A DNA stretch of 58,398 nucleotides from IMG/VR virus record IMGVR_UViG_3300003971_000004, positions 1 through 58,398 of that record. One strand, 5' to 3'. The notes beneath the pieces were generated by a model. That model was given only the letters and a program-made list of their open reading frames with translations, was not told where the DNA came from and searched no databases. The position numbers and the translations under genes were made by a program. This document shows positions 2,545 to 55,309 of the stretch, piece after piece; the first letter of the stretch is position 1, and every line of letters begins with the position of its first letter. Source of the stretch: a virus (Duplodnaviria > Caudoviricetes).

Positions 2545-5457
2545 CTAGTTTGCGAGCAGACGAGCGCCGGTGACTTCCGCCGCCCGACGCGCCTGAATTT
2601 CATACCCCGGCACCGTCCCCGACCCGGTCAGGTGGACCAGGTCGTGAAAGATGCCCATCTTCGCGACGGCGTATGGGGCGTGCGGCCCCATCGCGAAGTG
2701 CCAGTCCGCCACGGTCAGGTTCCGCTTGGCGCATTCGGCCAGGAAAATGCGGGTGTAGCGGTCCTGCACATCCTGGGCGATCGTCGCGGTCGCAGAGGGC
2801 GGGTCTGTCCAGGGCCAGACATCCGCGCCGGTGGCGATTGCTGCATCCAGCACGCTCCCGATCGCGGTGCGGTAGACGGTGTCTCCGACTAGCCCCGCCG
2901 CATCGTTGGTGACGCCCTCGGGCACAATGAGCGAAGCACCCAGCTTCCGCAGCAGCTCGGGAACCGAGTTCTCCGGGGTAAAGGCCCCGATGCTGTCGGT
3001 CGCCATCGTCACCATAGTGCGCAGCGGCGTGCCGCCGTTGACGACGATCAGGTGTGGGTTGACCGACGACCATGCGACGGAGCCGACGACGCCCACCGGC
3101 TTCGCATCGAGGGTGGTGACCCGATAGGTGTTGACCCCATGCACGACCCCGTCTGCGGGGCCGACGTCGGCATAGCCCATGCCGGCGACGCCGCTACAGT
3201 TGATCGTCTTGATCGAGGCTGCGCCGTTCACCGAGATCGCGATCCGGCCATAGTCTCCACCAAACGCGGATGCGTTGCCCATCCAGAAGAAGATGCGGTG
3301 CCAGTCGGTTTCGGTTGGCTCAGCATATTCGATCCAGCAGCCAGCGGTCGTTGCTCGCATTGCGCTGCCCGCAAGCTGCGTTCCCCATCCCGACCAGCCG
3401 GCGCTGCACGACAGACGATTGTCATAGGTGTTGGTGCCGCCGCCACCCGGGAACCCAGCGTTGCCGACCCAGCTAGTAACGCGCGCGGGAATACCCTGTG
3501 CTGTCATCTGGGCCGCCCACCGCGCCGGGGTGCTGGTCTGCTTGATCTGCCCCGTTGTGCCGTTGGTCGCGGCGGTGTGCGAGGTGCCGGGGCCGAACGC
3601 CACCACGGGCCAATGCCCGCTGGGCATCACGGTCCCTGCGAGCATCTTCAACACCGCGTCACGATAGGAGCGGAGGAACCGCTTGGGGTCATAGTTGACC
3701 AGGATCTCGTCGATCGACGGGAACGGGTGTTCGATGTTGTATCGCTCGAACAGCTCGAAATCCGACAGCGCGGCGGGCATGAACTCGATCCGGCTGATCG
3801 CGCCGTTCAAGGACTGCTGGCCGTAGACGTCGGAATTGTTGGCATTGCCCAGCCGCGCGCTGGTCCGCGCGACGCCATTCAGGAGGCTGTAGGCGACCCG
3901 AGCCGGGATCCGGGAGCCGCCACCAATGCTGACGTGCCCCGCCTCCCAAGTCATTGCGATCCGCACCGGCCCGGTGGAGAAATTGGCATCTCCGATATCG
4001 AAGCCCTGGATGTTCGTGCCGTCATAGTAGGTCCCGGAATCGTCGTCCGCGAGATAGACGACCGCAGCCCCATTCAGCGAAAGGACGGTGTTCGCGATGC
4101 CCGCCACCCGATGGGGCCGCTCGATGTCAATGAGCAGCGTCCCGGCCGGTGCCTGGAGCGCGGTTAGGAGGTCTCCCCCAACAACCGTCTGATCGCCGTT
4201 CCGCGTGCTGGCACCGTTCACGAACGGAGTCGGCACCGCAGTCCCGCTGATCACGTCGTTGTATTCGACGCGCACATAGGTCTCGGCGGTGGTGCCGGTG
4301 AAGTCGAGGTTGATAGTTCCAGCCCCGGTGATGTTGAGCAGCTGATAGGTGCGAGGTGCCGAAACGTGCGTTCCCCAGCCGGTACCAGTGGCGGTGCCGG
4401 CCGAGGTCGCGACCTGACCCGGCCCGCTCAGCCAGACCGCCAGGCGGCCCGTCACCGGCATCGTGACGGTGGTGTCGCTGGGATTGGAGGTCGAAAGCAG
4501 CGCCTTCGAAAACTGGTAGCAGAGCAAGCCCTTGGTCGGGTGGACAACCGGCTGCCCGGCCGCGACCGTGACGGGGACCGTCCCTGACGGGTCCATGTTG
4601 GTCAGCGTCGTCGATGCCTGTGCGCGCGTGGTCGTCAGAGACCCGGAAGGGTAAAGGCCGAGGGCCATATCCCAGATCACGCTGTCCTTCGTGACAATGG
4701 CACCCGAAGGGTCGATGCCGGGCTCCCAGCCATCGGCACTGCGAGCCGGATACTGGATGCGCAGGTCCGTCGAATAACCACGGTCGCCGGTCTGCCCCCG
4801 GTTGTCAGGTGCTTGACCGGAGAAAACCACGAGGGATGCGCCGATCGGTACGGTTGCGAGCGCCGCGTCGACCTCCGCCGCCAACGTCTTGGCAGACTTG
4901 GTCCCCGGACCGGCTGGCGCGGTGTCGCTTTCCGCCCATGCCTGGGCAAGCAGGGCGGCGTCACGCACGCCGAGATCGACCGCATAGATGCGCTCAAGCC
5001 CGCTCGGCGATCCGGTCTTGTAACGGAAAATGCCAGTGTTCGGGACGACGAGGCCCGAGATCGGATCGGTATGCGTTCCGGTGTCAGTGGCCGGCACCTC
5101 AACCAGTTCGCCAGCCGTGAACGACATCGCTGCGGCGGCCGCCCAGCTCGGCGCACCCTTGCGGCCAGACGTGATCGTCCCGACCACGCCGGACAAGTCC
5201 ACCACCTGAAGCTTCTGGATCGGAGGTGCCGAATAGGTGCCGTCCGCAGACACGATCTCGACGTCATAGATGCCATCATTCGTGGCGAAACCGAGAGCGC
5301 CGACGCCATCGGCGGTAAGCGGATTGTCGATCGCCTCACCTTCGGCGTCGAACAGGGCGGCCTCCGTCGTCGTCCCGGTCAACAGGACGGTCGCGCGCGC
5401 ATATGGGAGCACCGCCCCGGTGTCGGCCCGGGCGGCGTAGAACTGAACGAACTGCAT
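2545..5457 (-). CDS. Tailspike / receptor-binding protein with C-terminal SGNH hydrolase domain
   Basis: N-terminal virion-attachment-like segment, beta-rich middle; SGNH blocks GTSHT, NGGTP, GVTND, DLVH. Confidence 0.75.
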   Translation of the reverse strand: MQFVQFYAARADTGAVLPYARATVLLTGTTTEAALFDAEGEAIDNPLTADGVGALGFATNDGIYDVEIVSADGTYSAPPIQKLQVVDLSGVVGTITSGRKGAPSWAAAAAMSFTAGELVEVPATDTGTHTDPISGLVVPNTGIFRYKTGSPSGLERIYAVDLGVRDAALLAQAWAESDTAPAGPGTKSAKTLAAEVDAALATVPIGASLVVFSGQAPDNRGQTGDRGYSTDLRIQYPARSADGWEPGIDPSGAIVTKDSVIWDMALGLYPSGSLTTTRAQASTTLTNMDPSGTVPVTVAAGQPVVHPTKGLLCYQFSKALLSTSNPSDTTVTMPVTGRLAVWLSGPGQVATSAGTATGTGWGTHVSAPRTYQLLNITGAGTINLDFTGTTAETYVRVEYNDVISGTAVPTPFVNGASTRNGDQTVVGGDLLTALQAPAGTLLIDIERPHRVAGIANTVLSLNGAAVVYLADDDSGTYYDGTNIQGFDIGDANFSTGPVRIAMTWEAGHVSIGGGSRIPARVAYSLLNGVARTSARLGNANNSDVYGQQSLNGAISRIEFMPAALSDFELFERYNIEHPFPSIDEILVNYDPKRFLRSYRDAVLKMLAGTVMPSGHWPVVAFGPGTSHTAATNGTTGQIKQTSTPARWAAQMTAQGIPARVTSWVGNAGFPGGGGTNTYDNRLSCSAGWSGWGTQLAGSAMRATTAGCWIEYAEPTETDWHRIFFWMGNASAFGGDYGRIAISVNGAASIKTINCSGVAGMGYADVGPADGVVHGVNTYRVTTLDAKPVGVVGSVAWSSVNPHLIVVNGGTPLRTMVTMATDSIGAFTPENSVPELLRKLGASLIVPEGVTNDAAGLVGDTVYRTAIGSVLDAAIATGADVWPWTDPPSATATIAQDVQDRYTRIFLAECAKRNLTVADWHFAMGPHAPYAVAKMGIFHDLVHLTGSGTVPGYEIQARRAAEVTGARLLAN

Positions 5458-5486: not shown

Positions 5487-8078
5487 TTACTCGAACTCGC
5501 GCTGGCGCTGGCCTTCGTAGCCGCCGCCGCTGGAGCCGCCGCCGGACGGGGTCGAACCGCCGCCGGTGGTGATGGTGAAGGTGATTTCAGAGGACAGATT
5601 CAGGTGGGCCGGATTCGAGGTCCAGCCATCGAACGCGGCGATCCGCCCGTAATATGTGCCTGCCCCGAGGCCGAAGATCTGGACCGAGGGGATGCCCGCT
5701 GAGACCACGCCCCCGGAGGTCGAAGGATCGAAGCCGGTGGTGTCGGAATAGAAGACGACATACCCGGCCACATCCGCATCGCCGGAGACGTCGCAGCTTC
5801 CAACCGCGGTGGTCGCGCCGTCTGCGATCGCCGCCGTCGTCACCGCCGCAGGCGCCGCGTTGGTGACGTGCAGCCATTCCGAGGGGGCCGCGTCGCCAGC
5901 CGAGTTCGTGGCGACGCATTCAATCGCATAGGCGCGCTGGACACCATCCTGCGCGGCGAGCGAGGCGGTGTAGGTGGCTGTGGGCGACGAACTGTTGATC
6001 TCGCGGACCAGCGTCGTCTCATCGGACAGGAAGAAGCGGAATTTGTACGCGGTGGCCCGCTCGGCGGCATCGCAGACAACATTGAGCGTCGTGCCAGTCC
6101 AGGGCTGGGCGAGCCGCACATTCCCCGCCTTGTCCGGCCGCGCCGTCGCGGGTTCCAGCTCCACGGTGAACGCCGGCACATCCGCGAGCGATTCGAGCGC
6201 GCGCCCGAAGATGTTGAAGCTGGGCAGCTTGACCTGCACCGTCGCCCCGACGCTCAGCGCGCCATAGTCGAGCTTGAAGATCGCGTCGTCGAGCCGGACG
6301 AAGCGGACACCGCTGCTGTGCGACGCCGGCACCGTCCCGTAGAGACCGCGGCGGAGCGGGCTGAGATCGTACTGGTTCGCTCCGGTCAGGGTTGCATCCT
6401 GATAGGAGACCAGCTCGTTTCCGACGAGGCTGAGCGTCACGCCCGCGTCCATCTCGGCGGCCGTGCCCCCGGCGATAGTCCCGAGGCTCTCCGCCAGGTC
6501 GACCGAGAGCGGGTTGGTGTTGTCGGGGTCAGCGGACAGCGCGAGGGCGGCGGTCAGCTCACCATACCGCGCCGGCGCGTTGATCACCCCGGCCCGGCTG
6601 AAGGTGGTGCCATCGACGCTGATCCAGACCTCGCAGCCGCCCCAGGTCGGCGACGTCGAGCTTACTGCACACCAGATCTCGCGGCGTCCGTTGGTCAGCG
6701 AGGACGGGGCATTGAACAGCACCGGGTCCGATACCGCCCCGGGAGCGATGTCCGCGTTCGGCTGATAGCCGGCACCGCTTTGCCCGGCCGAGGACAGCGC
6801 AGAGGCGGCACCCATCGGGAGGGCGTTGGCCAGCACGACGAGCTGGCCGTCCTCGTCCTCCTCGATCTCCGCGATGCGGACGGGGAGCTGATCCAGCAGC
6901 AGGCCGTCGCTGACCGTGGTCAAGGTCACGATGTTCGTCGGTTCAAGCAGCACGAAGTCCCAGGGCAGGCGAAACTTGTAGCGCTCGCGCGTGTACAGGA
7001 TGCGCTGGAGCAGCAGCTGCGTCGCCTTCTGCGCGACCGCGGCGTCCGCGATCGACTGCCAGTTCGTCGGATCCTGCTTGCGGCGGCCGAACTCGACGAT
7101 GTTCGCGAGATCCTGCGCGGTAGCGATCGCCGCGTTGTACTGGTTCGCGCGATCCCGGAATTCGACCTGGACGATGTTGTAGGCGTCGGTCTGGTCGACG
7201 ATCTCCAGCACGACCGGAGGCTCGCCGTCCTCGGCAAGGAAGTCGTCCTCGGTCAGGTCATAGCAAGGGGTCAGGTCGGGGGTCCAGGTGACCCCGTTCC
7301 CGGTCGCTGGGGCGTCGCCAAGCGGCGTCGCCTTCAGCAGACCCTCCGACCAGAGCAGCTCGGTGTTGGAGGCCTGCGCGAGCTCCAGCAGAAACTCGCT
7401 CGCCCGACGCTGCGACTCTTCGACCGGCGACAGCAGCAGCCCCGTCGCGCGGGCATAATCCGACCAATCGTCGAGGTCGCCGATCAAGCCCGCAGACCAT
7501 CCCGGCAGGCCATGCGACGGGCTGGTCAGGTAATCCACGGTGATGTCGCGCGGATCGGCATCACAGACGCCCCCGCCGAGCTGGATCGCGAAGTCGACCT
7601 CGAAGCTATGGTTGGACAGCGTCGCCGAGTCCGACAGATCGTAGTTGGCGGCGTAGACGTAGGCGATGCCCGAATAAGCGAGTGCCTCGGACGGGAATTG
7701 GCTGACCAGATAGCCCCACGGGGCCTGATCGACCTCGCCCGTCGCCAGGCTTAGCCCGGCCTGCGCCAATGCGCTGGTCGCTCCGTTGGTGAAGACCGAC
7801 TTGTCTTTGTAAACGGTGCGGACGCCAGCGATCGGGCCTTCGCCCAGCATCATGATGACCGACGCGGTATAGGTGTAGGTGGTGTTCTTGGAACCCCCGA
7901 GACCTTTGCCGCCGGTCTTCGTCGTCTGGGGAATCGCTCGAAACGCGCCGTACCAACCGAGATTGCAGGACATGCGCCCGCGCCCCCAGCCGAGCGAGAG
8001 CGCGCGGCCGAGCGTCGAGGACTGGACGCTGATCGCGTTGAGCTTCGTGGCGGAGGTGGAGGTTTTCTTCCCCAGCAT
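5487..8078 (-). CDS. Tail tip / central fibre protein (GTA-like, J-like)
   Basis: LGEGPIAGV, LAYSGIAYV motifs, fibronectin-like C-terminus, position after NlpC gene. Confidence 0.85.
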   Translation of the reverse strand: MLGKKTSTSATKLNAISVQSSTLGRALSLGWGRGRMSCNLGWYGAFRAIPQTTKTGGKGLGGSKNTTYTYTASVIMMLGEGPIAGVRTVYKDKSVFTNGATSALAQAGLSLATGEVDQAPWGYLVSQFPSEALAYSGIAYVYAANYDLSDSATLSNHSFEVDFAIQLGGGVCDADPRDITVDYLTSPSHGLPGWSAGLIGDLDDWSDYARATGLLLSPVEESQRRASEFLLELAQASNTELLWSEGLLKATPLGDAPATGNGVTWTPDLTPCYDLTEDDFLAEDGEPPVVLEIVDQTDAYNIVQVEFRDRANQYNAAIATAQDLANIVEFGRRKQDPTNWQSIADAAVAQKATQLLLQRILYTRERYKFRLPWDFVLLEPTNIVTLTTVSDGLLLDQLPVRIAEIEEDEDGQLVVLANALPMGAASALSSAGQSGAGYQPNADIAPGAVSDPVLFNAPSSLTNGRREIWCAVSSTSPTWGGCEVWISVDGTTFSRAGVINAPARYGELTAALALSADPDNTNPLSVDLAESLGTIAGGTAAEMDAGVTLSLVGNELVSYQDATLTGANQYDLSPLRRGLYGTVPASHSSGVRFVRLDDAIFKLDYGALSVGATVQVKLPSFNIFGRALESLADVPAFTVELEPATARPDKAGNVRLAQPWTGTTLNVVCDAAERATAYKFRFFLSDETTLVREINSSSPTATYTASLAAQDGVQRAYAIECVATNSAGDAAPSEWLHVTNAAPAAVTTAAIADGATTAVGSCDVSGDADVAGYVVFYSDTTGFDPSTSGGVVSAGIPSVQIFGLGAGTYYGRIAAFDGWTSNPAHLNLSSEITFTITTGGGSTPSGGGSSGGGYEGQRQREFE

Positions 8079-27299: not shown

Positions 27300-27918
27300 G
27301 GAGCGACCGCTCGACAAAGCCGTTGCTGATCCCGAATTCGTCGACATGGGCCTGAAGCCGGGCTTCGAGCCATGCCGCTTCGGCGTCGGTGAGCGGCACT
27401 TTCTTGTTGCCGAAGGTCAGCTGCAGCGTCTTGCTGTCACCACCATTCGGCTGTTGGAGGGGTTCCAGCTCGTCCGGCATCTCGCCGGCCTGTTCCAGCC
27501 CGACCATCTCGTCGACTCCGAAGCCGGTCAGCGCGACCGCGAAGTCGTCGCCCAGCAGCGCTTCGAGTTCGATGCGGAGCAGACCCTCGTCCCACGAGGC
27601 GTTCTCAGCCAGCTTGTTGTCGGCGATGATGTACGCCCGCTTCTTCGCCTCGTCCCAGCCGCGCGCGACCATGACCGGCACCTGGGCCAGCTCGAGCAAG
27701 CGAGCGGCCATGACGCGACCGTGGCCGGCAAGGAGCATCCCGTCCTCGTCGATCAGGACGGGGACGGTCCATCCCCATTCGCGGATCGCGGCGGCGAGCT
27801 GGGCCACCTGCGCCTCGCTGTGGATGCGGGCATTGCGCGCATAGGGAAGGAGGGCGGCGACATCGCGCAGCTCGACGGTGGCGGCCGGCCAGAGGGCCGT
27901 ATCCGGGTTGCTCGACAC
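27292..27918 (-). CDS. ParB/Srx N-terminal domain protein
   Basis: PYARNARIHS..QV...GWTVPVLID...LAGHGR...IADNKL; AAGGA RBS before GTG. Confidence 0.85.
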   Translation of the reverse strand: MSSNPDTALWPAATVELRDVAALLPYARNARIHSEAQVAQLAAAIREWGWTVPVLIDEDGMLLAGHGRVMAARLLELAQVPVMVARGWDEAKKRAYIIADNKLAENASWDEGLLRIELEALLGDDFAVALTGFGVDEMVGLEQAGEMPDELEPLQQPNGGDSKTLQLTFGNKKVPLTDAEAAWLEARLQAHVDEFGISNGFVERSLRV

Positions 27919-28020
27919 GGGATTTCCTTGGGCGCGCGCAGCTCCGTCCCGAGAGAAGCGGGGCGAGCGGGGCAAATTTGGGGGTGAGGTGTTCCGGTTT
28001 TGGGAACTTTCCGTACTGGC

Positions 28021-28050
28021 TATATCGCTCGCAACTCGTGGCACTGTCAA
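28021..28050 (-). promoter_or_regulatory. Candidate late-operon promoter
   Basis: Minus-strand TTGACA (28050-28045) with GCGATATA 16 nt downstream, ~100 nt upstream of the first late gene. Confidence 0.55.
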
Positions 28051-28100
28051 TCGCGAAAATTGCGATGCTAAATAGTGTTAGGTAACGCCCAACATTGTTA

Positions 28101-28129
28101 TTGACTTGTGTAAGCCGCTGACTTACATT
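28101..28129 (+). promoter_or_regulatory. higBA promoter with palindromic operator
   Basis: TTGACT-N17-TACATT; TGTAAG-N7-CTTACA (28109-28127); ATG 6 nt after the -10 (leaderless). Confidence 0.7.
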
Positions 28130-28135
28130 CTCTCT

Positions 28136-28411
28136 ATGATCAAGTCGTTCCGCAGCAAAGCCCTCAAGGTCTTCTTCGAGAAGGGGGACGCCTCGAAGCT
28201 CCCGGTTCCTAACCACGACCGGGTGCGCCGCCAGCTCATCACCCTCGACGAGGCGACCACGCCTGACGCGATGAACGTCCCGGGCTGGCGGTTTCACGGG
28301 CTGCAAGGCAAGCCGAAACGCTATGCGGTCGATGCCAGCGGGAACTACCGCGTCACCTTCGCCTTCGACGGGCAAGATGCGGCGGCGGTCGATCTAGAGG
28401 ATTACCATTGA
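28136..28411 (+). CDS. higB: HigB (RelE/ParE superfamily) toxin
   Basis: MIKSFRSKAL...PGWRFHGLQG...SGNYRVTF...VDLEDYH. Confidence 0.92.
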   Translation: MIKSFRSKALKVFFEKGDASKLPVPNHDRVRRQLITLDEATTPDAMNVPGWRFHGLQGKPKRYAVDASGNYRVTFAFDGQDAAAVDLEDYH

Positions 28412-28437
28412 ACTGCGACCACGGAGGGTCAGGTGTT

Positions 28438-28740
28438 ATGACGATGATGACGGGCCTTAGGCCCATGCACCCCGGAGAGCTTTTGCGCGAGGATGTCATT
28501 CCCGCGCTGGGCGGGAAGAAGGCGGCGATCGCGCGGGCGCTCGGTGTCTCGCGGCACACGCTGTACGAGTTGCTGGCGGAGCGCCAGGACGTGACGCCCC
28601 AGATGGCGCTGCGGCTGGGCAAGCTGTGCGGCAACGGTGCCGAGATCTGGGGGCGGCTCCAGCTCAGGTACGACCTCGCGGTCCAGAGCGAAACGATGCG
28701 CGAGGAGCTGGAACGAATTCCGACGATGGAGGCCGCTTAG
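28438..28740 (+). CDS. higA: HigA antitoxin
   Basis: PMHPGELLRE, HTH, VTPQMALRL, W.RLQ..YDL. Confidence 0.92.
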   Translation: MTMMTGLRPMHPGELLREDVIPALGGKKAAIARALGVSRHTLYELLAERQDVTPQMALRLGKLCGNGAEIWGRLQLRYDLAVQSETMREELERIPTMEAA

Positions 28741-28748
28741 AAATACGA

Positions 28749-28831
28749 CCGGCCGAGGAGCGGTAACTCCCCGGCCGGAAGGTTCCCTACCAAGGAACCT
28801 GCGCCTGATGCCCGCGCGGTAAGCACCGCGC
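28749..28831 (+). ncRNA. Candidate structured RNA / leader of three hairpins, including a start-less CTACCAA-loop hairpin
   Basis: Stems at 28749-28778, 28780-28800 and 28814-28831. Confidence 0.45.
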
Positions 28832-28876
28832 AAGACTGCCCGATCACAAATTTCTTTCCCTACCAAGGAGCTATCG

Positions 28877-30418
28877 ATGAACTATGTGACCGGGGGCTTC
28901 ACGCCTCCCGACAACGATTCCACGGTTCCGCCCGATCAGGCGCTGGCAACCCTCGCCAACATCAAGGACTTCACCGACGGGCGCGACCGCGCGATCGCGA
29001 TGTGGCTCGAAGCCTATGACAGCTTCCACGCCACGACGGCGGCGGCCGGCGCGACCTGTATCGCGGGCAACCTCTCGCTCTCGATCCCCCAGGACGACCG
29101 CTACTCGGACAACTCATTCACTCGCGCGTTCCTGACCACGGGACAAGCGCAGCGCTGGGACAAGGCGCTGGGTCGTCAGGTGGCATATGTCGCTCGCGAC
29201 GACTTCGAGAAGCTGCTCACTGCGAATATCGATCGGCGGTGCTGGTCACACCTGATGGAGCATCTCGGGTTCGACACGCTGCTCGACAGCCAGGCGCGAA
29301 GCGAGTTCCACGCCAGCATCCGCGACGCGCCACCGGCCTTCACTGTTGAGAACGCGAACGCGACCTTCTCCACCGTCTGGGCAAACCGGCGGGAGATGTA
29401 CCTGCGCGGTATCGCCAACGTCTTCATGAAGATGGACCGGCGTTTCCGCTCGCACGACGCCTTCGCGATCGGGAACCGCCTGATCTTCTCCAATGCGCTG
29501 GCGGTCGAGTGGGCGGGCTGGTCGAGCTACGACCGCGGTAAGCGGGACGCGCTCGCCGACGTCGAGCGGATCTTTCGCGAGCTGGATGGGAAGGGGCCGC
29601 TGCCATACGCGCAGCAGGTCTCGGAGCGCATCGCGATCCACCCCAACCTCCGCCCGCATCGCTTCGAGGAGGACTATTTCAAGATCGACGTCTTCAAGAA
29701 CGGCAACATCCACCTCTGGTTCACGCGCAAAGACCTGCTCGCCAAGGTCAACGAGCTGCTGCTCGAATATTACCGGCCCGTCGAGGGCGACGTCGATCAG
29801 AGCGCCCCGGGTTATGACGCGGGACCGCTCTACCATGCGACGCCGGCGAAGCATTACGGCTTCTTCCCCTCCCCGGAGCCGGTGGTGGCACAGGTGATGG
29901 CGCGGGCGGAGATGTACGGCCGGGCAGACTGCGCTGGGCAAATGCGGGACGAGTGGAAGCCCAGCCGCGTCCTCGAACCAAGCGCTGGTACGGGCGCGCT
30001 CGCGGCGGCCGCACGAGCCAAGGGCCACGATGTGACCTGTGTCGAGATCCAGCCGCACCTCGCATCCCTGCTGCGGACCAGCGGCTATCGGACGCGCGAG
30101 GGCGACTTCCTCGCGATGCAGCCCAGCGACCTCGGCGAGCTGTTCGATTTCGTCATCATGAACCCGCCCTTCGATCGTGGCCGCGACTGCGACCACGTCC
30201 GCCACGCGCTCAAATTCCTCAGGCCGGGTGGCCGGCTGGTCGCTGTCATGTCCGCCAGGGCGGAACACGCGACCGATGCGCGCCACAAGGCGCTGCATGA
30301 CGAACTGGCTCGGTTGGGCCGCGGCAATGCCCGCTGGATTGACCTGCCCGAGAAGTCGTTCGCCCTCGCAGGCACGAACGTGAACACCGTGATCCTGGAC
30401 GTCAGGAACTACCGGTGA
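28877..30418 (+). CDS. DUF4942-type protein with C-terminal amino (N6A/N4C) DNA methyltransferase
   Basis: FKIDVFKNGNIHLWF; FFPSP, VLEPSAGTG (motif I), MNPPF (motif IV), F...GTNVNT. Confidence 0.85.
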   Translation: MNYVTGGFTPPDNDSTVPPDQALATLANIKDFTDGRDRAIAMWLEAYDSFHATTAAAGATCIAGNLSLSIPQDDRYSDNSFTRAFLTTGQAQRWDKALGRQVAYVARDDFEKLLTANIDRRCWSHLMEHLGFDTLLDSQARSEFHASIRDAPPAFTVENANATFSTVWANRREMYLRGIANVFMKMDRRFRSHDAFAIGNRLIFSNALAVEWAGWSSYDRGKRDALADVERIFRELDGKGPLPYAQQVSERIAIHPNLRPHRFEEDYFKIDVFKNGNIHLWFTRKDLLAKVNELLLEYYRPVEGDVDQSAPGYDAGPLYHATPAKHYGFFPSPEPVVAQVMARAEMYGRADCAGQMRDEWKPSRVLEPSAGTGALAAAARAKGHDVTCVEIQPHLASLLRTSGYRTREGDFLAMQPSDLGELFDFVIMNPPFDRGRDCDHVRHALKFLRPGGRLVAVMSARAEHATDARHKALHDELARLGRGNARWIDLPEKSFALAGTNVNTVILDVRNYR

Positions 30419-30454
30419 TGCCCGCGACCCTTCCCTACCAACGGAGCAACCCTG

Positions 30455-30640
30455 ATGTCCAAGGAACCGTCGCCCCGATCTGATTTCCCGCTTCCCGCTG
30501 ACAAGGTCGATGAGCAGATCGCCGATGTTGGGCGCATGGCCGATCGCGACTTCGAGCGGTTCGGCTGGAACGAGAAGAAGCCGTCACCACCCCCGAAAAG
30601 GAAGCGTTCGCCGCGCAAGAAAAAGGCGAATAAGCAGTAA
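30455..30640 (+). CDS. Small protein with a basic C-terminus
   Basis: GGAG RBS inside a motif copy. Confidence 0.6.
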   Translation: MSKEPSPRSDFPLPADKVDEQIADVGRMADRDFERFGWNEKKPSPPPKRKRSPRKKKANKQ

Positions 30641-30656
30641 CTTAGAGTGGCGATTG

Positions 30657-30687
30657 TGCTTTACGCCGGTCGCCGGTGTCATAGAGT
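30657..30687 (+). promoter_or_regulatory. Promoter TGCTTTAC-N17-TAGAGT (copy 2)
   Basis: Shares boxes and spacing with 25499 and 55233. Confidence 0.6.
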
Positions 30688-30716
30688 TCGGGCTCCCTAC
30701 CAAGGAGTCCGAACCC

Positions 30717-30884
30717 ATGATGATTGACCACGGCATCCACCAGTTCTTTGACCAGGTGGACGATCTCCCCAGCCAGTGCTGCGCACGCGACCGCGATGAC
30801 AGTCTGAGCGCTTGGATCGTTGAGAACTTCGGCCCCGAGATCGCTGATGCGATCGTAGAGCGCGTCGGCGCGGAGGTGCTGTGA
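30717..30884 (+). CDS. Small acidic hypothetical protein
   Basis: AAGGAG RBS; stop overlaps the ParB start. Confidence 0.6.
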   Translation: MMIDHGIHQFFDQVDDLPSQCCARDRDDSLSAWIVENFGPEIADAIVERVGAEVL

Positions 30885-31762
30885 TGCCGAAGCGCATCGC
30901 CCTCGGCCGCATCTTCGGCAACCCCGACCAGCCCCGCAAGATCTTCGATGAGGAGGAGCTGCGGCACCTCGCGGCGTCGATCCGCGAGAACGGGCTGCTC
31001 CAGCCCATCACTGTCCGGAAGGAGAAGGACGGGCGCTACATGATCGTCGCCGGCGAGCGACGGTTCCGCGCCTGCCAGCTCCTCGCCGAGCAGGGCGGGG
31101 CGACGGAGATCGCGTGCAACCTCGCGAAGGTGGACGACGCCCAGCTCGCGATCGATGCCATCATCGAGAACGATCAGCGGGTCGATGTCACGCTGATGGA
31201 GCAGGCCCGGTCCTATCAGCGGATGATCGCGGAATTCGAATACACGCCGGAGACGTTGGCGGTGAAGTTGGGCAAGCCGCTGGTGCGGATCACCGAGCGG
31301 CTCCGGTTGCTCAATCTCACCGAGGAATGCCAGCACCTGCTCGAGCGCGGCCAGCTGTATCAGACCCAGGCCTATTACCTCGCCGGGCTGTCCGAGGCGG
31401 GGCAGGGGAAGCTGTTGCGCCAGATCAATGCGGGGCGGTGCCGGACGGTGACAGCCCTGCGCGATATCGCCCAGGCGATCGCCGAGGCGGAGGCTCAGAC
31501 CTCGATGTTCGGGGACAGCGAGACACCACCGCCGCCCACGGTCGCGGAGATAAGCGCGGCGCGCGGGTTCGAGGCACGGCTCGACAACATCGCGGCTTTC
31601 CTCCGTGCCGGCATCGATGACAACGTGGTGACGGCGGTCCGGAAGGTCGATCCCGGCCGGGCCGAGACGATCGCCGAAATCCTTGCGGTGATGCAGAAGG
31701 ACCTGCATCGGATGGAGGCCGCATTCAGGGTCGCGGCGGTGCAGGCGGAGCTGGCGGCGTGA
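30884..31762 (+). CDS. ParB/RepB/Spo0J family protein
   Basis: NPDQPRKIFD, GLLQPITVR, IVAGERRFRA, IIENDQR, HTH. Confidence 0.9.
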   Translation: MPKRIALGRIFGNPDQPRKIFDEEELRHLAASIRENGLLQPITVRKEKDGRYMIVAGERRFRACQLLAEQGGATEIACNLAKVDDAQLAIDAIIENDQRVDVTLMEQARSYQRMIAEFEYTPETLAVKLGKPLVRITERLRLLNLTEECQHLLERGQLYQTQAYYLAGLSEAGQGKLLRQINAGRCRTVTALRDIAQAIAEAEAQTSMFGDSETPPPPTVAEISAARGFEARLDNIAAFLRAGIDDNVVTAVRKVDPGRAETIAEILAVMQKDLHRMEAAFRVAAVQAELAA

Positions 31763-31954: not shown

Positions 31955-34900
31955 CTATTTCGGAAGCTCCTTCCTGAACATGTTCAGGCGGATGTCATCA
32001 TCCCAAATACCACCCCGCTTCCAGGATGAGATGAACTTTCGATCCTGCAACCAAGAAGCGAATTCGCGGTTGACCGCGCTATCCGCAAGCCGCGGCGTTG
32101 CCCAGCCCGGTCGAATTTCCGGCATCGGATCTGGAAGCAGCGCAAGAAGCTCTCGCACCTCGGCGTCCCCCACGCGATCTTGGAGCATGTTGAAGAGCGA
32201 GATTTGCGTCTCGAGGGGGTGGGAACGCAGTATGACTGCATGCATCCCCTCCGCGTCCAGGTTATCGACGATGACGCCTGTCCGGGCGAGGATGTCGCCG
32301 ACGAGAGCTGCCCGCGAGGGGATGTCGCGCAGCACGGATAGATCCATCGAGCGGATGATGCTCAACCGGCTGTCATCCGGGACGTCGGCTTCGAGAAGCT
32401 GCGCCTTCAAATCCTCGCTCACCTCCAATTCGTCCTGGAGCCTAAAGAATTCTTCCATGTTTGCGGTCACAAAGGCAGCCGCAAGCGAGACGTCATCTTC
32501 AAGCTGCGTCAGGGCGCGAGCTGAGAAGGTTATACGATTGAACTTGACCAAAGCCTGGCGCTTTTCCTCGCTAAGGCCATCAGGGAACAACCTGAACCGA
32601 GTCGGCAGGACCTGGAGGTAGGCTTCGTAAGCCTCACCGCTAAGGGCATCGTTCTGGACGATGAACTCGCGCAAAGGGAATGCGGCTTCGCCGCCGGGAA
32701 TCCTTTGGGAACCAAGCGTAGCTACTGCATGCGGGCGGTCGAGGAAGCTCGTTAGGATGTCAGCGTCAAACGTCTCGTGTCCGATGAAGAAAAGGCAGTT
32801 ATTCCACGACGGCTCGATCTTCCCCATAGCGACAAGCTCGGCATGATAGGCCGAGGGGACCTTGTCCATTTCGGGAAGAACGGTCGTCTGACGCTCGAGG
32901 AAGCTAAGGACGAGTTCGCGATCCAAATCTGTGCGGGCTAGGATGCTCAGTAGCGCCTCGATGCCTTCGGATCGGTTATCCGGCAGCTCGAGCAGCACAC
33001 TTTCCAGATAACTGCCAAACTGGCATTCGACCTTCGACAGGAGTCGATCATCTCCTGCTTCTAGGGCAAGGGTGTAATTCTGGCCACGCGACCGACCGTC
33101 GTCTTGGATACCGAGAACGGTGCCGAACACGAACTCCAAGTTTTTGACGGATAGCGCGTAGGCCCCTCGTTCGTATAGCATTCCCACGAAGCCGGGATGG
33201 GGTTCCAGCGCGGACAGGTCGGTGACCTCAAAGTCGAGCGAGCGGAGACGCTCGGGAGGGATATCTATCCCGAGCGCGAGAATCGCGGGCAGGTCCGACG
33301 CCAGAAAGTCCGTGAGCTCGGGATTCTGTTCGGCGAGCGTCTCCAACTGCCTGACTGGCAAATGGATCAGGATTCTAGCCGCGTGCGTGTGAGCGGCTGG
33401 ACTGGCCAAGATGGCCTGCACGAAACCCGACCAAGCGGACGCCAGCCTGGTTAACAGCTTTATGACCGCTGTGCCGCTCGCGTAGTATGCTGCGAGGAAC
33501 TCCTCGCAGTCGCCGAAGTCGGATGCGATGAAGGCGATGAGGCGCGACGTCTGTCCCTCATAAGAGGATGGATCAGCGAGGAGGCAATCGACGATCTTGA
33601 CGTTGAGAGCGTAGTTTCGCCCGAAGTCCTCGTCGCGCATCGCGAGGATGACCTCTCTTGGGTTATCGATCTGGAAGTTGGGATCGGGATTGCTGAAGCC
33701 GCGTATGCGGATGAGGAATTTATTGTCGCTCGGCGAGAGCCGGCCTTTGTGAAAAAGGGAAGTGTATTGGTAGTAGGTGTCGTCGAGGTAGCCCTCAAGC
33801 ACCAGGAAGCGCGCGAGATCTGAATTATCTCGAAAAGCTCCAAACATCCCGTCGGTCAGTTCCGAGCTGTCCCTCAATATCTCGTTGAACTTCATCATCC
33901 GCACGCGCGATAGCTTTGTTCTCAGTTCTGCAATTGTCTTGGCACTGCTCTCTCTGGCAGCGGTGGACCGACCCTCGACCAGAGAAACGCGTTGCGCGAA
34001 CGTCTTCCCGCCCTTGCGGCTTTCCGCCAGGCTGGAAAACGGTACACTCTGGAGCCCTAGATATTGACCGCTGACAAAGACGTTATCCGCTGCCAGAATT
34101 GCATCTACGGCTTCGCTCTTCAGCAAATCCCTCACCGGAACTAAGCGATGCTGATTTACTCCAACGTGGGTGGCGTTTGCAGGGATGGCTTCGATTAAAG
34201 CCATCGAGTAGATCGCGCGTAGCTCGGAGATGTCCTCCGGCAGCTGTCTATCGCCGGCCTCTACGACGGCCTCAAGACGTGCGATCTCAGCGGTTAGGCT
34301 GGCTTCGCTAGTGGCGATGTATCTATCGTGGCTCTGCAGGATCTCCGCAAGGTCACCCCGTCCACGGTGCAGCTGCTCAAAGTCGTTCGGAAATACGTTT
34401 TTGTAGATCAAAACGGCCAAAAGCTTCGTCGTGTCTAGGTTGGTTTCCCCTTCCGGCTCGAGGTTGGCAGCATATATAGCGTATTCGTTAAAGATGTTTT
34501 GGATCAGTCTCAGATCATTGAGGTATCTGGACACTTCTCGCACGAACTGCTTGTCCAGACTGTCGTCGATAGAGAGGCGCTTTCCTTGCTCAAGCACTTT
34601 GTCAATCGAGTTCGAACTGTTAATAATCGGAATTACAGGAATGATAAACTCGAAGAACTTGGTCCGGTCAGTGCTGACGAAGATATCGTCTCGAATAGCA
34701 TAGAGGAATCGAACCTTCCGACCCACCCTCACGTTCTTGTTCACGAGACTGTTGATCTCGCGTAACGTCACGAAAATCTCCGGATTATTGAACCTGTCAA
34801 GATCTTCAATCACAACCAGTTCGTAGCTCGTCGACTGGAAAAAATAGATAATCTCGTCGAGGTGACGGTTGAGTATCGACTCCTCATTCACCGCTGCGGG

Positions 34901-35602
34901 TGAAATTTCGATGTCTTTAAGCGAGATGCTCTTCAATGAGATGCCGAAGCTGGCAACGTAAATCCGGTGACAGAGCAGCCAGAGGAAGCCCCCTCCCAAG
35001 GCGAAAACGAGCAAGTTGAAAAGATTCTCTAGACCGAGGGGCAGAAAGTACGTGCCCGACATGATCCCGTCGCGCTTTTGGATCAGCTGCCAGGATGCGA
35101 CGAGCCCCAGTGCAATGAAGAGAGAGACAACGGGCGTCCACCGGCCGGGCGACTGTATTCGCTTGAACCGTGAGAGCGGTAATCGGTTCGCGTCGGCACC
35201 ATACAGCATTTGCTGAAGGATGCTTCGCTCGATCTCCTGTCTGCTCACCGTCAGCGTCTGTCTCTTGGTCTCCTGGTCGCTGTTCTCGCTAGTCGAGGGG
35301 GCCGCGTCGGGCATGAACGCCGCCAAGGAGATCTCGAGGGCCTTCCTATCATACTTTTTTAAAAATGATTTGATGATGCTGCTCTTACCGGAGCCGTAGG
35401 GTCCAGTGAGCGCAATGTTCATGGCGCGTGGGTTGCTGATGGCCTTGGTCAAGGCTGCGGAGTAAACGCCGGACTTATCCGCCTGATCGGTGGGGGCGAG
35501 ATCGACTAATTTTAGTTCGGGCCTTTCCTGAGTCGCCTCCTTCTTCAACCATTTTGCGGACGAGACGAGCAACTCTGCCAGCTTGTTCCGAAGGTCAAAC
35601 AA
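31955..35602 (-). CDS. YobI-type (KAP-related) P-loop NTPase with two TM helices
   Basis: NIALTGPYGSGKSS, IERSILQQ, VVIEDLDRF, RTKFFEFIIPVIP; visibly more AT-rich than its flanks. Confidence 0.88.
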   Translation of the reverse strand: MFDLRNKLAELLVSSAKWLKKEATQERPELKLVDLAPTDQADKSGVYSAALTKAISNPRAMNIALTGPYGSGKSSIIKSFLKKYDRKALEISLAAFMPDAAPSTSENSDQETKRQTLTVSRQEIERSILQQMLYGADANRLPLSRFKRIQSPGRWTPVVSLFIALGLVASWQLIQKRDGIMSGTYFLPLGLENLFNLLVFALGGGFLWLLCHRIYVASFGISLKSISLKDIEISPAAVNEESILNRHLDEIIYFFQSTSYELVVIEDLDRFNNPEIFVTLREINSLVNKNVRVGRKVRFLYAIRDDIFVSTDRTKFFEFIIPVIPIINSSNSIDKVLEQGKRLSIDDSLDKQFVREVSRYLNDLRLIQNIFNEYAIYAANLEPEGETNLDTTKLLAVLIYKNVFPNDFEQLHRGRGDLAEILQSHDRYIATSEASLTAEIARLEAVVEAGDRQLPEDISELRAIYSMALIEAIPANATHVGVNQHRLVPVRDLLKSEAVDAILAADNVFVSGQYLGLQSVPFSSLAESRKGGKTFAQRVSLVEGRSTAARESSAKTIAELRTKLSRVRMMKFNEILRDSSELTDGMFGAFRDNSDLARFLVLEGYLDDTYYQYTSLFHKGRLSPSDNKFLIRIRGFSNPDPNFQIDNPREVILAMRDEDFGRNYALNVKIVDCLLADPSSYEGQTSRLIAFIASDFGDCEEFLAAYYASGTAVIKLLTRLASAWSGFVQAILASPAAHTHAARILIHLPVRQLETLAEQNPELTDFLASDLPAILALGIDIPPERLRSLDFEVTDLSALEPHPGFVGMLYERGAYALSVKNLEFVFGTVLGIQDDGRSRGQNYTLALEAGDDRLLSKVECQFGSYLESVLLELPDNRSEGIEALLSILARTDLDRELVLSFLERQTTVLPEMDKVPSAYHAELVAMGKIEPSWNNCLFFIGHETFDADILTSFLDRPHAVATLGSQRIPGGEAAFPLREFIVQNDALSGEAYEAYLQVLPTRFRLFPDGLSEEKRQALVKFNRITFSARALTQLEDDVSLAAAFVTANMEEFFRLQDELEVSEDLKAQLLEADVPDDSRLSIIRSMDLSVLRDIPSRAALVGDILARTGVIVDNLDAEGMHAVILRSHPLETQISLFNMLQDRVGDAEVRELLALLPDPMPEIRPGWATPRLADSAVNREFASWLQDRKFISSWKRGGIWDDDIRLNMFRKELPK

Positions 35603-35816
35603 GACTGCAAGGCTCCTTTGAATGATTTAGTAACGATCGGTTCTGATCTGACCTAGAGCGAAAATTTCTGAGTTGGCGGGTCAGGTGGCCGATCATGTTG
35701 CTCTCCTCGATTCGAACGAACAGATTAGCGAGCGACTGCCTTGACGGCGATGACTATCGCGGTGTTTGGTCATTCTTAGGAGCGCCGGTGCCCGGCCTCC
35801 AACGACGGGGTATGCG

Positions 35817-36155
35817 ATGCTTTGGGCGATAGCGCTGATCGCGACGGTGCAAGGGCCGACCTACCAAGAAGCGGGAGATATCGGCGCCGCATGGACCGAT
35901 TGTGTGAAGCGCCAGCTCGCGCGGATCGACGATGACCGCGAGACCGTAACAGTGATCGTTCAGAGCGCTTTCGAGCTCTGCAAGGAGAGGCGCGCCGCGT
36001 ACTGGTCGGTGATGCACGACCTCTACGCGCAACGCGTGAAGAAGCTTGATCCGGTCGAATGGGCGAACCGATACATGGATCGGCAGGAAGGCGAACTAGC
36101 CATTACGGCCCGTGCGGCTGTGTTGGAACAGCGCGCCTCACGTCGGGGAAAGTAG
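35817..36155 (+). CDS. Putative exported protein
   Basis: Hydrophobic leader MLWAIALIA, two Cys. Confidence 0.55.
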   Translation: MLWAIALIATVQGPTYQEAGDIGAAWTDCVKRQLARIDDDRETVTVIVQSAFELCKERRAAYWSVMHDLYAQRVKKLDPVEWANRYMDRQEGELAITARAAVLEQRASRRGK

Positions 36156-36164
36156 GGGGAGCGA

Positions 36165-36983
36165 ATGCAGATTCAGACGACCGCTGACCAGTTAATCTAC
36201 ACGACAATGCGGCTCACGGCGCTGTCTAACGGCGTACCGATCGGGACCGGGACTGGTTTCTTCTTCACTTTCAACTTTGATGGTCATCCGATGGATGTGA
36301 TCGTTACCAATAAGCACGTGGTCGAAGGCGCCGATGCGGTCCAGCTGCGGCTGCATATGCGGAATGCCGCTGGCGAGTTTCTGCCTGAGGGCCAGCTATT
36401 CACGATTAATTTCGGGTACGTGGTCGGCCACCCTGATCCCGATGTCGATCTCTGCGCCATTGGTGTTGGGGCGATGACGACGCTCAAGAAGGAAGGGCGA
36501 CAGGCGTTCGCTGTCAGTTTGGGCGCACACAACATCCCATCTGAGCAGGACTGGCAGTCCTTCGATTCGGTCGAGGGCGTTTGGATGGTCGGCTGTCCCA
36601 ATGGTCTCTACGACACGATGAACAATCTCCCGATTGTTCGTAGCGGGATCACGGCCTCCAGCCCACGACTGCTCTACCGCGGGAAGGAGGAGTTTGTTGT
36701 GGATATGGCGTGCTTCCCGGGCTCTTCCGGATCGCCAATTTTCCAAGCGCCCTCGCTAGCCAAGTTCGATCGGAAGAGCGGGAATACGCAGTTTGGGCGG
36801 GTCGAGAAAGGCTTCTTGCTCGGCATCCTGTACGCCGGACCGATGATAAAGAACTCCGGCGAGATTGTCTTGAGCACAACGCCCAGGGTCGAGGTTACCT
36901 CGATGATGCACTTGGGCTACGCGATCCGCTCTAACCGGATCCTCGACTTCAAGCCGCTGATCGAGCCGCTCATTGGGAAGTAG
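36165..36983 (+). CDS. Trypsin-like (S1) serine protease, no signal peptide
   Basis: GTGFF, VTNKHV (His), DVDLC (Asp), PGSSGSP (Ser). Confidence 0.9.
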   Translation: MQIQTTADQLIYTTMRLTALSNGVPIGTGTGFFFTFNFDGHPMDVIVTNKHVVEGADAVQLRLHMRNAAGEFLPEGQLFTINFGYVVGHPDPDVDLCAIGVGAMTTLKKEGRQAFAVSLGAHNIPSEQDWQSFDSVEGVWMVGCPNGLYDTMNNLPIVRSGITASSPRLLYRGKEEFVVDMACFPGSSGSPIFQAPSLAKFDRKSGNTQFGRVEKGFLLGILYAGPMIKNSGEIVLSTTPRVEVTSMMHLGYAIRSNRILDFKPLIEPLIGK

Positions 36984-37039
36984 GTTGCCAGCAACAAGCG
37001 CGCATCATGGTGTGCGCTAGGCCGACCGCAAACGGGGAA

Positions 37040-55263: not shown

Positions 55264-55309
55264 TCGCGGGTCAAGGAAACGCGACGATCCCTACCAAGGA
55301 GCAACACCC

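Follow-up and report, generated by a model that had tools for sequence, protein, structure and literature searches.

A conserved two-hairpin element with a start-less copy of a start-associated motif in an alphaproteobacterial provirus: a candidate minus-strand antisense RNA gene

In this study, we describe a small element in the window, by which we mean the whole 58,398-nucleotide (nt) stretch of provirus DNA analysed here (IMG/VR record IMGVR_UViG_3300003971_000004, 58.4 kb). The element occupies a 136-nt gap with higB/higA upstream and a methyltransferase gene downstream, and one of its hairpins carries a "start-less" copy of a motif whose other copies stand a few nucleotides before gene starts. 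As judged from its relatives, the element is real, conserved, structured and functionally linked to this start-associated motif. We propose that it most likely encodes a small antisense RNA of about 62 nt on the minus strand, an "anti-SAS" RNA (SAS, start-associated sequence), which would repress the motif-bearing early genes; we hold this reading with middling confidence. Our evidence consists of the conservation and structure of the element, the asymmetry between its strands, its complementarity to gene starts and the recurrence of its layout in other phages, and from it we infer minus-strand transcription, the ends of the RNA and repression by pairing.

Conservation and structure of the element

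The element was found in four further contigs: G002 (L005), G006 (L018), G001 (L102) and G407 (L233). G006, a prophage in a Sphingomonas sp. chromosome, is the nearest cellular relative of the window (methyltransferase 91% identical), and a metagenome contig (L104) is identical to G001 across the 519 bases compared. The features of the element are the following, the two box sequences being given as read on the plus strand.

28749-28778, plus-strand form: hairpin 1, with 7 bp, a 1x1 mismatch, 4 bp and the loop CGGUAA
28749-28778, minus strand: hairpin 1 as a perfect 13-bp GC-rich helix with a tetraloop, the proposed intrinsic terminator
28780-28800, plus-strand form: hairpin 2, a perfect 7-bp stem with the loop CUACCAA, holding the start-less motif copy
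28780-28800, minus strand: hairpin 2 presenting the anti-motif UCCUUGGUAGGGAA, the proposed seed
28814-28831: hairpin 3, with 7 bp and the loop AAGC; contains CGGTAA
28739-28748, minus strand: U-rich tail UCGUAUUUCU, directly 3' of the hairpin-1 helix and reaching two bases into the higA stop codon (28738-28740)
28801-28812, minus strand: conserved box GCGCCTGATGCC, 11/12 bases identical to G001, partly kept in G407
28812-28828, no strand assigned: variable 17-nt spacer, overlapping the 5' part of the non-conserved hairpin 3
28826-28834, minus strand: conserved box CCGCGCAAG, 9/9 bases identical to G001

A first-pass annotation of the window had placed three consecutive hairpins in this gap, and folding reproduces all three at these positions. 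The predicted energy of a 151-nt stretch is -51.2 kcal/mol on the plus strand (z -3.16) and -65.1 kcal/mol on the minus strand (z -3.03), an equally good fold being reached by 1/200 shuffles for each. Both strands fold better than shuffles, and the three hairpins are real.

Against G001, positions 28745-28812 are identical at 62 of 68 sites (91%), whereas the flanking genes reach only 67-80% (higB 222/276, higA 228/300, methyltransferase 482/724). Identity is 3/13 at 28813-28825, 9/9 at 28826-28834 and 7/23 at 28835-28857. Because their identity to G001 is higher than that of the adjoining genes, we consider hairpins 1 and 2, about 12 nt beyond them and a short box 35 nt further to be under selection. 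The conserved core, 28741-28812, takes in the first two hairpins and about 12 bases beside them. Hairpin 2 is unchanged over 21 nt in four lineages; it shows no covariation, its conservation being at the level of sequence. In G407 it carries the motif variant of G407 itself, CCCUACCAC instead of CCCUACCAA, and in both lineages the loop is the phage's own variant (...CCAAGGA in the window group, ...CCACAGGA in G407).

The G407 copy was the fifth, recovered at 44.9 bits (E = 5.9e-10) with a covariance model derived from four sequences; it sits between two unrelated small genes, 2.3 kb upstream of the G407 methyltransferase. Elsewhere in 90 sources (685 kb) the model gave no match at E < 0.24, besides palindromic reverse matches of hairpin 1, and among 151 Sphingomonadaceae genomes it found G006 and one canonical host terminator, which is oriented like hairpin 1 read on the minus strand. 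DNA BLAST of the element against 401 Sphingomonadaceae genomes retrieved G006 only, the other 19 matches being short, GC-rich and attributable to chance. Searches with a 19-mer and with degenerate hairpin-2 patterns returned only G001, G002, G407, the metagenome contig equal to G001 and four unrelated matches.

Hairpin 1 changes in a different manner. Among the five sequences, 3 of its 11 pairs are altered on both sides. Its cells are paired at 97.6%, against 20-57% with slid partners, and the covariation score is reached by 2/500 shuffles, in a test that has five sequences only and an alignment fitted to the covariance model. By these comparisons, the element appears as a conserved structured nucleic-acid element whose pairs are kept through compensatory changes. 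Hairpin 3 has an uncompensated mismatch in G002 and another in G006, and unrelated small hairpins stand in its place in G001 and G407; it lies outside the conserved unit. Structural conservation in relatives, on which the first-pass annotation had in part staked its proposal, is thus found for hairpins 1 and 2 and lacking for hairpin 3, and its unit of three hairpins is reduced to two.

The same annotation regarded the element as more than a terminator region of higBA, tied functionally to the ribosome-binding-site motif, and in this it was right. Other parts of it did not hold. The repeat TGATGCCCGCG, which it had singled out here and before a later motif copy, has three exact copies in the window, yet many other 11-mers of the element are repeated to the same extent (blastn E = 1.4 each). 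Allowing one mismatch raises the count to 8, where 4.26 would be expected and 4/100 shuffles reach as many, and the copy at 30416 is lost in G001. The pairing it imagined between GGUA in the hairpins and UACC in the motif loop spans 4 nt only, and the hairpin-1 loop CGGTAA is present in one of the five lineages (CGGTCA in G002, G006 and G001; CGAA in G407). The Infernal search that it had suggested returned no C4 or other family: Rfam 15 at the gathering score has no match in the whole window, C4 included, the sole match at E <= 10 in 28000-31000 is Scr6925 (21.5 bits against a gathering score of 50), and no Rfam family matches the module in six related loci. A tRNA/tmRNA search gave none.

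The start-associated motif and the proposed minus-strand RNA

The motif is TCCCTACCAAGGAG. Its copy TCCCTACCAAGGA(G) is present five times in the window, always on the plus strand, and four of these copies lie 6-9 nt before an ATG. The fifth is in hairpin 2, as the first-pass annotation had noticed; there TCCCTACCAAGGA agrees at all 13 nt with the copies that precede the starts at 28877, 30717 and 55310. The copy ahead of the start at 30455 contains one inserted base (C). That no credible gene follows the hairpin-2 copy also proved right: in the window, the reading frame that begins with the ATG at 28808 has just 4 codons, and G407 lacks this ATG. The 8-mer CCTACCAA is found 7 times in the window against 0.28 expected, a count that none of 100 shuffles reached; a literature search with it gave primers only.

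In the 4-Mb Sphingomonas genome G006, the motif 12-mer has four copies, all in one 24-kb prophage stretch, and controls gave 0. Its confinement to the prophage indicates a phage feature and not the usual ribosome-binding site of the host. No host RNA carrying the anti-motif was found in G006 (12-mer, up to 1 mismatch). Among 80 viral loci from the methyltransferase-profile set, CCTACCA has 75 copies on the gene strand and 5 on the opposite one. The copies cluster in 12 loci (2-8 per locus), and for 43 of the 75 there is a Shine-Dalgarno-like (SD-like) element and a start within 27 nt. Whole contigs of relatives hold up to 14 copies on the gene strand. The consensus reads yCCCTACCA[C/A], 0-6 nt, GGAG, then 5-9 nt to the ATG. 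Motif-bearing loci include L159, L160, L190, L200, L223, L228, L229, L231 and L034, the contigs G003, G004 and G407-G411, and, in the window, 28858, 30433, 30695 and 55289. G003 and G004 have the identical 13-mer before 2-3 genes each, and no window open reading frame (ORF) matches their proteins at E <= 1e-4. The cultured relative Rhizobium phage RHph_TM3_3_3 has the methyltransferase and no motif copy in 11.7 kb. Whatever its mechanism, the CCCTACCA-type motif is, on these counts, widespread in alphaproteobacterial (pro)phages with DUF4942 methyltransferase and ParB-like early genes.

Three other ideas on the motif were rejected. A universal motif, SD and ATG signal in viral contigs gave 52 matches over GC 0.37-0.70, by rough estimate near chance. 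Extended pairing of the motif with 16S rRNA amounts to the SD alone plus an 8-nt match (one G.U) to a paired helix strand, with p estimated at about 0.05 before multiple testing. A likeness of the 7-nt loop to an anticodon loop was abandoned, since motif core and GGA stand 0 to 6 nt apart depending on the copy.

Under the antisense reading, a small gene on the minus strand would coincide with the conserved core (28739-28812) and have a possible promoter extending to 28834. Its RNA would run from 28800 to 28739, with the seed hairpin at the 5' end, a linker of one base, and then the terminator helix and its U-tail. The 5' hairpin, the complement of hairpin 2, would display UCCUUGGUAGGGAA, the exact complement of the motif, and the 3' end would be an intrinsic terminator made of the hairpin-1 complement, a 13-bp helix, followed by UCGUAUUUCU. 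Such an RNA would pair over 11-14 nt, SD bases included, with the ribosome-binding regions of four early genes and would block translation initiation there, the motif serving as a common address for one repressor RNA. In cis, any transcript that reads through from higBA into the methyltransferase operon would also be fully complementary to it. The proposed targets are the following.

28857-28879, plus strand: target 1, motif, SD and ATG of the DUF4942 methyltransferase; seed duplex -31.4 kcal/mol
30432-30457, plus strand: target 2, motif (with the inserted C), SD and ATG of a 61-aa ORF, kept in G001; seed duplex -26.4 kcal/mol
30686-30719, plus strand: target 3, an 11-bp hairpin whose loop holds the motif core and whose 3' arm holds the SD, and the ATG of a 55-aa ORF overlapping a ParB gene
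55288-55312, plus strand: target 4, motif, SD and ATG of a 534-aa ParB-like protein (55310-56914); seed duplex -29.4 kcal/mol

The seed has a perfect complement of 13-14 nt at three targets and of 11 nt at the fourth. Over 427 start regions the median seed-duplex energy is -12.0 kcal/mol; three of the four motif-preceded starts rank 1, 3 and 5, the start at 30717 not being in the list, and the starts ranked 2 and 4 lie in frame with those ranked 1 and 3, at a distance of 3-9 nt. This high ranking follows by construction, since the motif is shared. The prediction was run with the seed hairpin only, because with the whole 62-nt RNA it is uninformative, the GC-rich terminator pairing with everything.

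Several motif copies have features of their own. At 30686-30714, the 11-bp hairpin (one mismatch) buries the SD of the 55-aa ORF and has the motif core in a 7-nt loop, and it is identical in G002 and G006. The -10-like 9-mer TAGAGTTCG occurs at about 30683-30691, ahead of the motif copy at 30695 by 13 nt, and at about 55266-55274, ahead of the copy at 55289 by 32 nt; both sites may be promoters of motif-bearing genes. In L034, a prophage in an Alsobacter metagenome-assembled genome, three motif copies (2900-2960, 5290-5350 and 7020-7082) share a TGCTTTTTTCTGTACGT-like sequence about 50 nt upstream, and two of the three have an upstream TGGTAG able to pair with the motif in cis.

The two strands of the element are not equivalent. 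Two A.C mismatches of hairpin 1 on the plus strand are G.U pairs on the minus strand, where the hairpin is a continuous 13-bp helix with a tetraloop in four of the five lineages; in the window, 10 of the 13 pairs are G-C, and a G-C/G.U swap distinguishes the window from G001 while leaving the minus-strand helix whole. The block folds better on the minus strand in all five lineages, by 2.5 to 7.0 kcal/mol (minus/plus: -39.0/-32.2, -39.2/-32.2, -39.2/-32.2, -39.9/-33.0 and -34.5/-32.0 kcal/mol). For the 62-nt candidate RNA, the energy is -37.8 kcal/mol (z -6.2), against -31.4 kcal/mol (z -4.8) for the plus strand.

Minus-strand hairpin 1 with UCGUAUUUCU is also the sole terminator-like site called in 27800-31200 under a rule of 5 T in 8; canonical U-tract terminators occur elsewhere in the phage. 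By hand count, at least 5 T in 8 are found in three of the five lineages (window, G002 and G407) and 4 in 8 in G006, with practically none in G001. On the minus strand, hairpin 2 is the only copy of the motif complement beside a terminator-like hairpin; leaving aside the complements of the other motif copies, the further 8-9-nt matches are partial, and no such hairpin adjoins them.

The conserved boxes could hold a minus-strand promoter. A -35-like CTTGCG (28834-28829) lies 17 nt from GCATCA (28811-28806), and GCATCA/CATCAG sits at the expected -10 place, with a predicted RNA start at about 28798-28800. Four DNA runs yielded few variants among those listed; within 28801-28834, the substitutions in G002 and G006 and those among the variants listed for runs X1, X5 and X6 all fall in the spacer. 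In all five lineages CAAG ends exactly 35 nt beyond hairpin 2 (CTCAAG in G407). A plus-strand promoter at the higA stop (TAGAAAT) was considered and rejected; it has no -35 element and was not called.

Start-less motif copies in four other contigs have a comparable layout: on the anti-motif strand, a strong hairpin and a U-rich tail come next. These sites are the following.

G409:19430: anti-motif 32 nt past the stop codon of a ParB-like gene, which has a motif copy at its own start; 11-bp hairpin, tail AUUUUUUU
G409:24275: start-less motif copy with an anti-strand hairpin and U-rich tail
G411:54384: 14-bp stem and CUUUUUC, about 460 nt downstream of a DUF6362-like helix-turn-helix (HTH) gene on the anti-motif strand
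L229:5423: start-less motif copy with an anti-strand hairpin and U-rich tail
L034:8236: 14-15-bp stem closed by a UUCG loop; another DUF6362/HTH-like gene lies about 145 nt upstream

At G409:19430 and in G411 and L034 the anti-motif strand carries a gene upstream of the site, so transcription of that strand is expected there. Among the terminator-like sites of nine contigs, 3/58 have an anti-motif within 45 nt upstream against 0.34 expected. By automatic count, an anti-strand terminator accompanies 5/14 start-less copies and 7/58 copies with a start (p = 0.048), and a terminator with at least 5 U accompanies 4/14 and 3/58, respectively (p = 0.023). These last three cases with a start are ambiguous, namely G409:19430 (its 51-aa ORF runs antisense to ParB), G411:54384 (likewise a 51-aa ORF) and the copy in G002 (an in-frame extension); moved post hoc to the start-less class, they give 7/17 against 0/55. 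In two unrelated phages, at L190:6006-6488 (minus strand) and L034:8388-9098 (minus strand), the genes before the anti-motif and terminator on that strand are weak DUF6362/HTH matches (30.3 and 20.5 bits, cut-off 31); in the window there is no DUF6362 match.

Objections and alternative readings

Several observations weigh against a minus-strand RNA and keep our confidence in it at a middling level. First, the putative -10 (GCATCA/CATCAG; CCAGAA/CAGAAG in G407) is without the usual final T and fits sigma-70 poorly, a promoter scan called no promoter at the element, and the -35-like CAAG of G407 doubles as part of the Shine-Dalgarno of the next gene. Second, the U-rich tail is interrupted (5 U in 8), is weaker in G006 and is absent in G001, which has a 10-nt insertion. 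Third, because two extra weak pairs form, the minimum-energy fold of minus-strand hairpin 2 has a 3-nt loop, and part of the seed would have to open. Fourth, G407 has a better z-score on the plus strand (-4.83 against -3.97), and a U.G pair of its plus-strand hairpin 2 is a C.A mismatch on the minus strand. Moreover, the G.U advantage of the minus strand is partly compositional, since the plus strand is C/A-rich. Finally, the module has only three truly independent lineages (window group, G001 and G407), the association across phages comes from simple hairpin and U-count rules and partly from the post-hoc reclassification of three cases, and G003 and G004 contain no start-less motif copy.

An ordinary boundary is the alternative that survives best, although we consider it unlikely. 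Hairpin 1 would then separate the higBA moron from the early operon, as an insulator or a terminator acting in both directions or on the minus strand, and hairpin 2 would be a functionless ribosome-binding site, left over or incidentally homogenised. Indeed, hairpin 1 resembles host terminators, and the G001 methyltransferase site reads GGAACC like hairpin 2, suggesting duplication or gene conversion. The slot upstream of the element is an exchangeable moron or defence cassette position: G002 (L005:2244-2864, compared with window 28106-28740) has a single 206-aa MUG113/T5orf172-HTH fusion in place of higB and higA between identical flanks, and its HTH gene shares just the last ~25 nt with the window, the element and the promoter region on the far side being the same. 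In addition, higBA has its own sigma-70-like promoter, TTGACT-17-TACATT (28101-28129), whose -10 is overlapped by a TGTAAG/CTTACA palindrome (28111-28130) that is kept in G001, as expected for HigA autoregulation. However, a relic would decay, yet hairpin 2 is invariant over 21 nt between coding flanks of 67-80% identity, and in G407 the hairpin pair has moved as a unit into another gene context. None of the three hairpins is followed by a U-run on the plus strand, and start-less copies beside anti-strand terminators recur in unrelated phages.

We regard a plus-strand cis element or decoy as quite unlikely. In this case hairpins 1 and 2 would belong to the 3' untranslated region of higBA or to the methyltransferase leader, hairpin 1 stabilising or bounding the transcript and hairpin 2 binding a recogniser of the motif (a protein or the 30S subunit), which it would titrate or nucleate near the downstream start. 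The module is co-oriented with the flanking genes in the window, G001, G002, G006 and G407, starting 8-19 nt past the upstream stop codon, the motif core lies in the single-stranded loop of the plus strand, and this loop equals each phage's own motif variant; the z-score and the U.G pair of G407, too, favour the plus strand. The first-pass annotation had compared the element with CsrB. CsrB and RsmZ are protein-sponge RNAs, and the likeness is that a ribosome-binding-site-like motif stands in a hairpin loop of a non-coding stretch; here, however, there is a single motif copy and GGA is in the stem, not in the loop. CsrA family members (PF02599) were found neither in the window at E <= 1 nor in the genome G006 at E <= 0.01, and the lack of window ORFs matching G003 or G004 leaves no candidate binding protein common to motif-bearing phages. 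A CsrB-like decoy thus receives no specific support. Two plus-strand mismatches of hairpin 1 are, as described above, G.U pairs on the minus strand. In G409, the motif-sense strand of the equivalent module opposes the ParB gene whose terminator the module shares, so no mRNA would be expected to contain the sense strand there, which weakens the decoy further.

A DNA-level site is very unlikely. The motif copies would be asymmetric operators for a DNA-binding protein of phage or host, and the inverted repeats its palindromes. Stoperators of this kind are asymmetric 13-bp sites for a phage repressor, present in many copies in short intergenic gaps and in one orientation to transcription; KorB/ParB-type global repressors are another precedent. 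The motif is indeed intergenic, multi-copy and of one orientation, and the window encodes four ParB-family proteins. Nevertheless, it is locked to Shine-Dalgarno bases, lying 0-6 nt 5' of them on the coding strand, which points to RNA; the identical 13-mer is common to phages without detectable shared proteins; and, as a difference from stoperators, it adjoins a hairpin with compensatory changes, which alters its sequence and keeps its complementarity, the signature of a folded strand and not of a binding site. The available text of PMC3203893 (Pope et al. 2011) mentions the stoperators of Cluster A mycobacteriophages beside SAS and favours DNA binding for the ESAS inverted repeats next to SAS.

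Lastly, it is extremely improbable that hairpin 2 serves the ATG at 28808 as a functional ribosome-binding site, whether for a 4-codon leader ORF coupling or gating methyltransferase translation or for an alternative upstream methyltransferase start, for although this ATG lies 10 nt after GGAA in the window, G002, G006 and G001, and in G002 and X1, X5 and X6 a replaced TAA (AA to TC) puts it in frame with the methyltransferase, 23 codons upstream, no ATG, GTG or TTG follows hairpin 2 in G407, the ORF varies from 4 codons (window) to 12 codons out of frame (G001) and an in-frame extension (G002), about 12 of 22 extension codons end in G/C by hand count, well below the 0.69-0.90 of the genes, and the SD-like bases are buried in a perfect stem.

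Relation to known systems, genomic setting and significance

We return to the proposed minus-strand antisense RNA. According to the available text of PMC3203893, Cluster K mycobacteriophages have SAS, a 13-bp asymmetric motif in 11-19 copies located 3-7 bp before starts, absent from the host and of unknown function, and Anaya and three other K1 phages have one copy in reverse orientation; in the accessible part of a 2025 survey, the function of SAS is still unverified (PMC12699233). As far as these texts go, the likenesses to the window motif are a ~13-nt asymmetric motif with a Shine-Dalgarno core, many copies in one orientation a few nucleotides before non-structural gene starts, absence from the host genome, conservation across related phages before unrelated genes, rare copies without a gene start, and some phages with a single copy in the opposite orientation. 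The differences are equally clear. The published consensus, as given there, is GGGATAGGAGCCC against yCCCTACCA[A/C]..GGAG here, with only the GGAG core in common, and the host phylum and phage lineages are others. Because the sequences differ, the window motif is an analogue of SAS, not its homologue. The 17-bp ESAS repeats are likewise distinct from the inverted repeats found here. Here the start-less copy is in a perfect hairpin beside a terminator-like hairpin, and no such RNA is proposed for SAS in the available text of PMC3203893 and PMC12699233. In a 35.8-kb stretch of Anaya (JF704106, L270), 16/17 SAS matches are on the plus strand; the single reverse copy (34871-34883) falls within the 385 nt of non-coding DNA that separate gp96 from gp97, and a canonical bidirectional terminator precedes it by about 170 nt. 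The transcribed strand therefore carries an anti-SAS sequence, which is a lead for a similar arrangement in the original SAS phages.

P4 CI, P22 sar and lambda OOP are small structured phage antisense RNAs of about 60-80 nt with a hairpin-plus-terminator architecture; they keep early or anti-repressor genes off by pairing with their leaders or ribosome-binding regions. The C4 RNA of P1/P7 is, in the available text of PMC8201110, a small structured phage RNA that pairs with early or anti-repressor leaders or ribosome-binding regions and holds them off. The first-pass annotation had drawn this analogy; the comparison fits, with the strand and the pairing site changed: the RNA would come from the opposite strand, and it would pair through the motif copy, over 13-14 nt with the SD, and not through GGUA. 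C4 and CI are processed from the strand of their targets, whereas the RNA here would be a counter-transcript. It would also use one seed for at least four dispersed genes through a shared motif, in contrast to one operon, and the element is without an Rfam C4 match.

The genomic setting is that of a provirus. The structural genes, of siphovirus type, lie on the minus strand and include a terminase, a portal-MuF fusion and Rcc01698-type tail proteins; the window also encodes a CI-like S24 repressor, DnaB and RecT. Upstream of the element, higB matches HigB-like_toxin (4.3e-11) and higA is an HTH protein under the Pfam cut-off; downstream, 28877-30418 encodes a 513-aa protein with DUF4942 and methyltransferase domains (4.6e-50). 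Past the methyltransferase come the 61-aa ORF, which has a basic tail (30455-30640), the 55-aa ORF and a ParB gene (30881-31762), followed by a convergent low-GC island with a YobI-like NTPase. This island (31955-37000) has a GC of 0.51-0.58 against ~0.65, encodes a trypsin-like peptidase and a 1215-aa YobI-like P-loop NTPase (minus strand), and looks like a defence island within the prophage. In G001, a near-threshold match to the Rfam DUF3800-VIII RNA motif (38.1 bits, gathering score 40.2) lies upstream of higB at L143:2223-2288 (minus strand); at the gathering score the window has no counterpart.

Phage antisense repressors and start-associated motifs are each known, and their combination is new; the literature we found on "start-associated" sequences consists of descriptive accounts only and makes no link to phage antisense RNAs. 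In a broader and more doubtful generalisation, which we put forward tentatively, start-associated motifs are address tags, and one tiny antisense RNA from a start-less, hairpin-embedded and terminator-adjoining copy of the tag switches a set of early genes off or on in translation. This layout is seen in several unrelated alphaproteobacterial phages (the window group, G407, G409, G411, L229 and L034), and the idea may also explain the Cluster K SAS. If the minus-strand RNA exists, it would offer a concrete, testable mechanism for the keeping of an identical sequence before many unrelated early genes, and it would provide a search rule for similar regulators, namely a start-less motif copy beside an anti-strand terminator. 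It would also mean that temperate phages of Alphaproteobacteria possess a compact post-transcriptional switch for a whole regulon.

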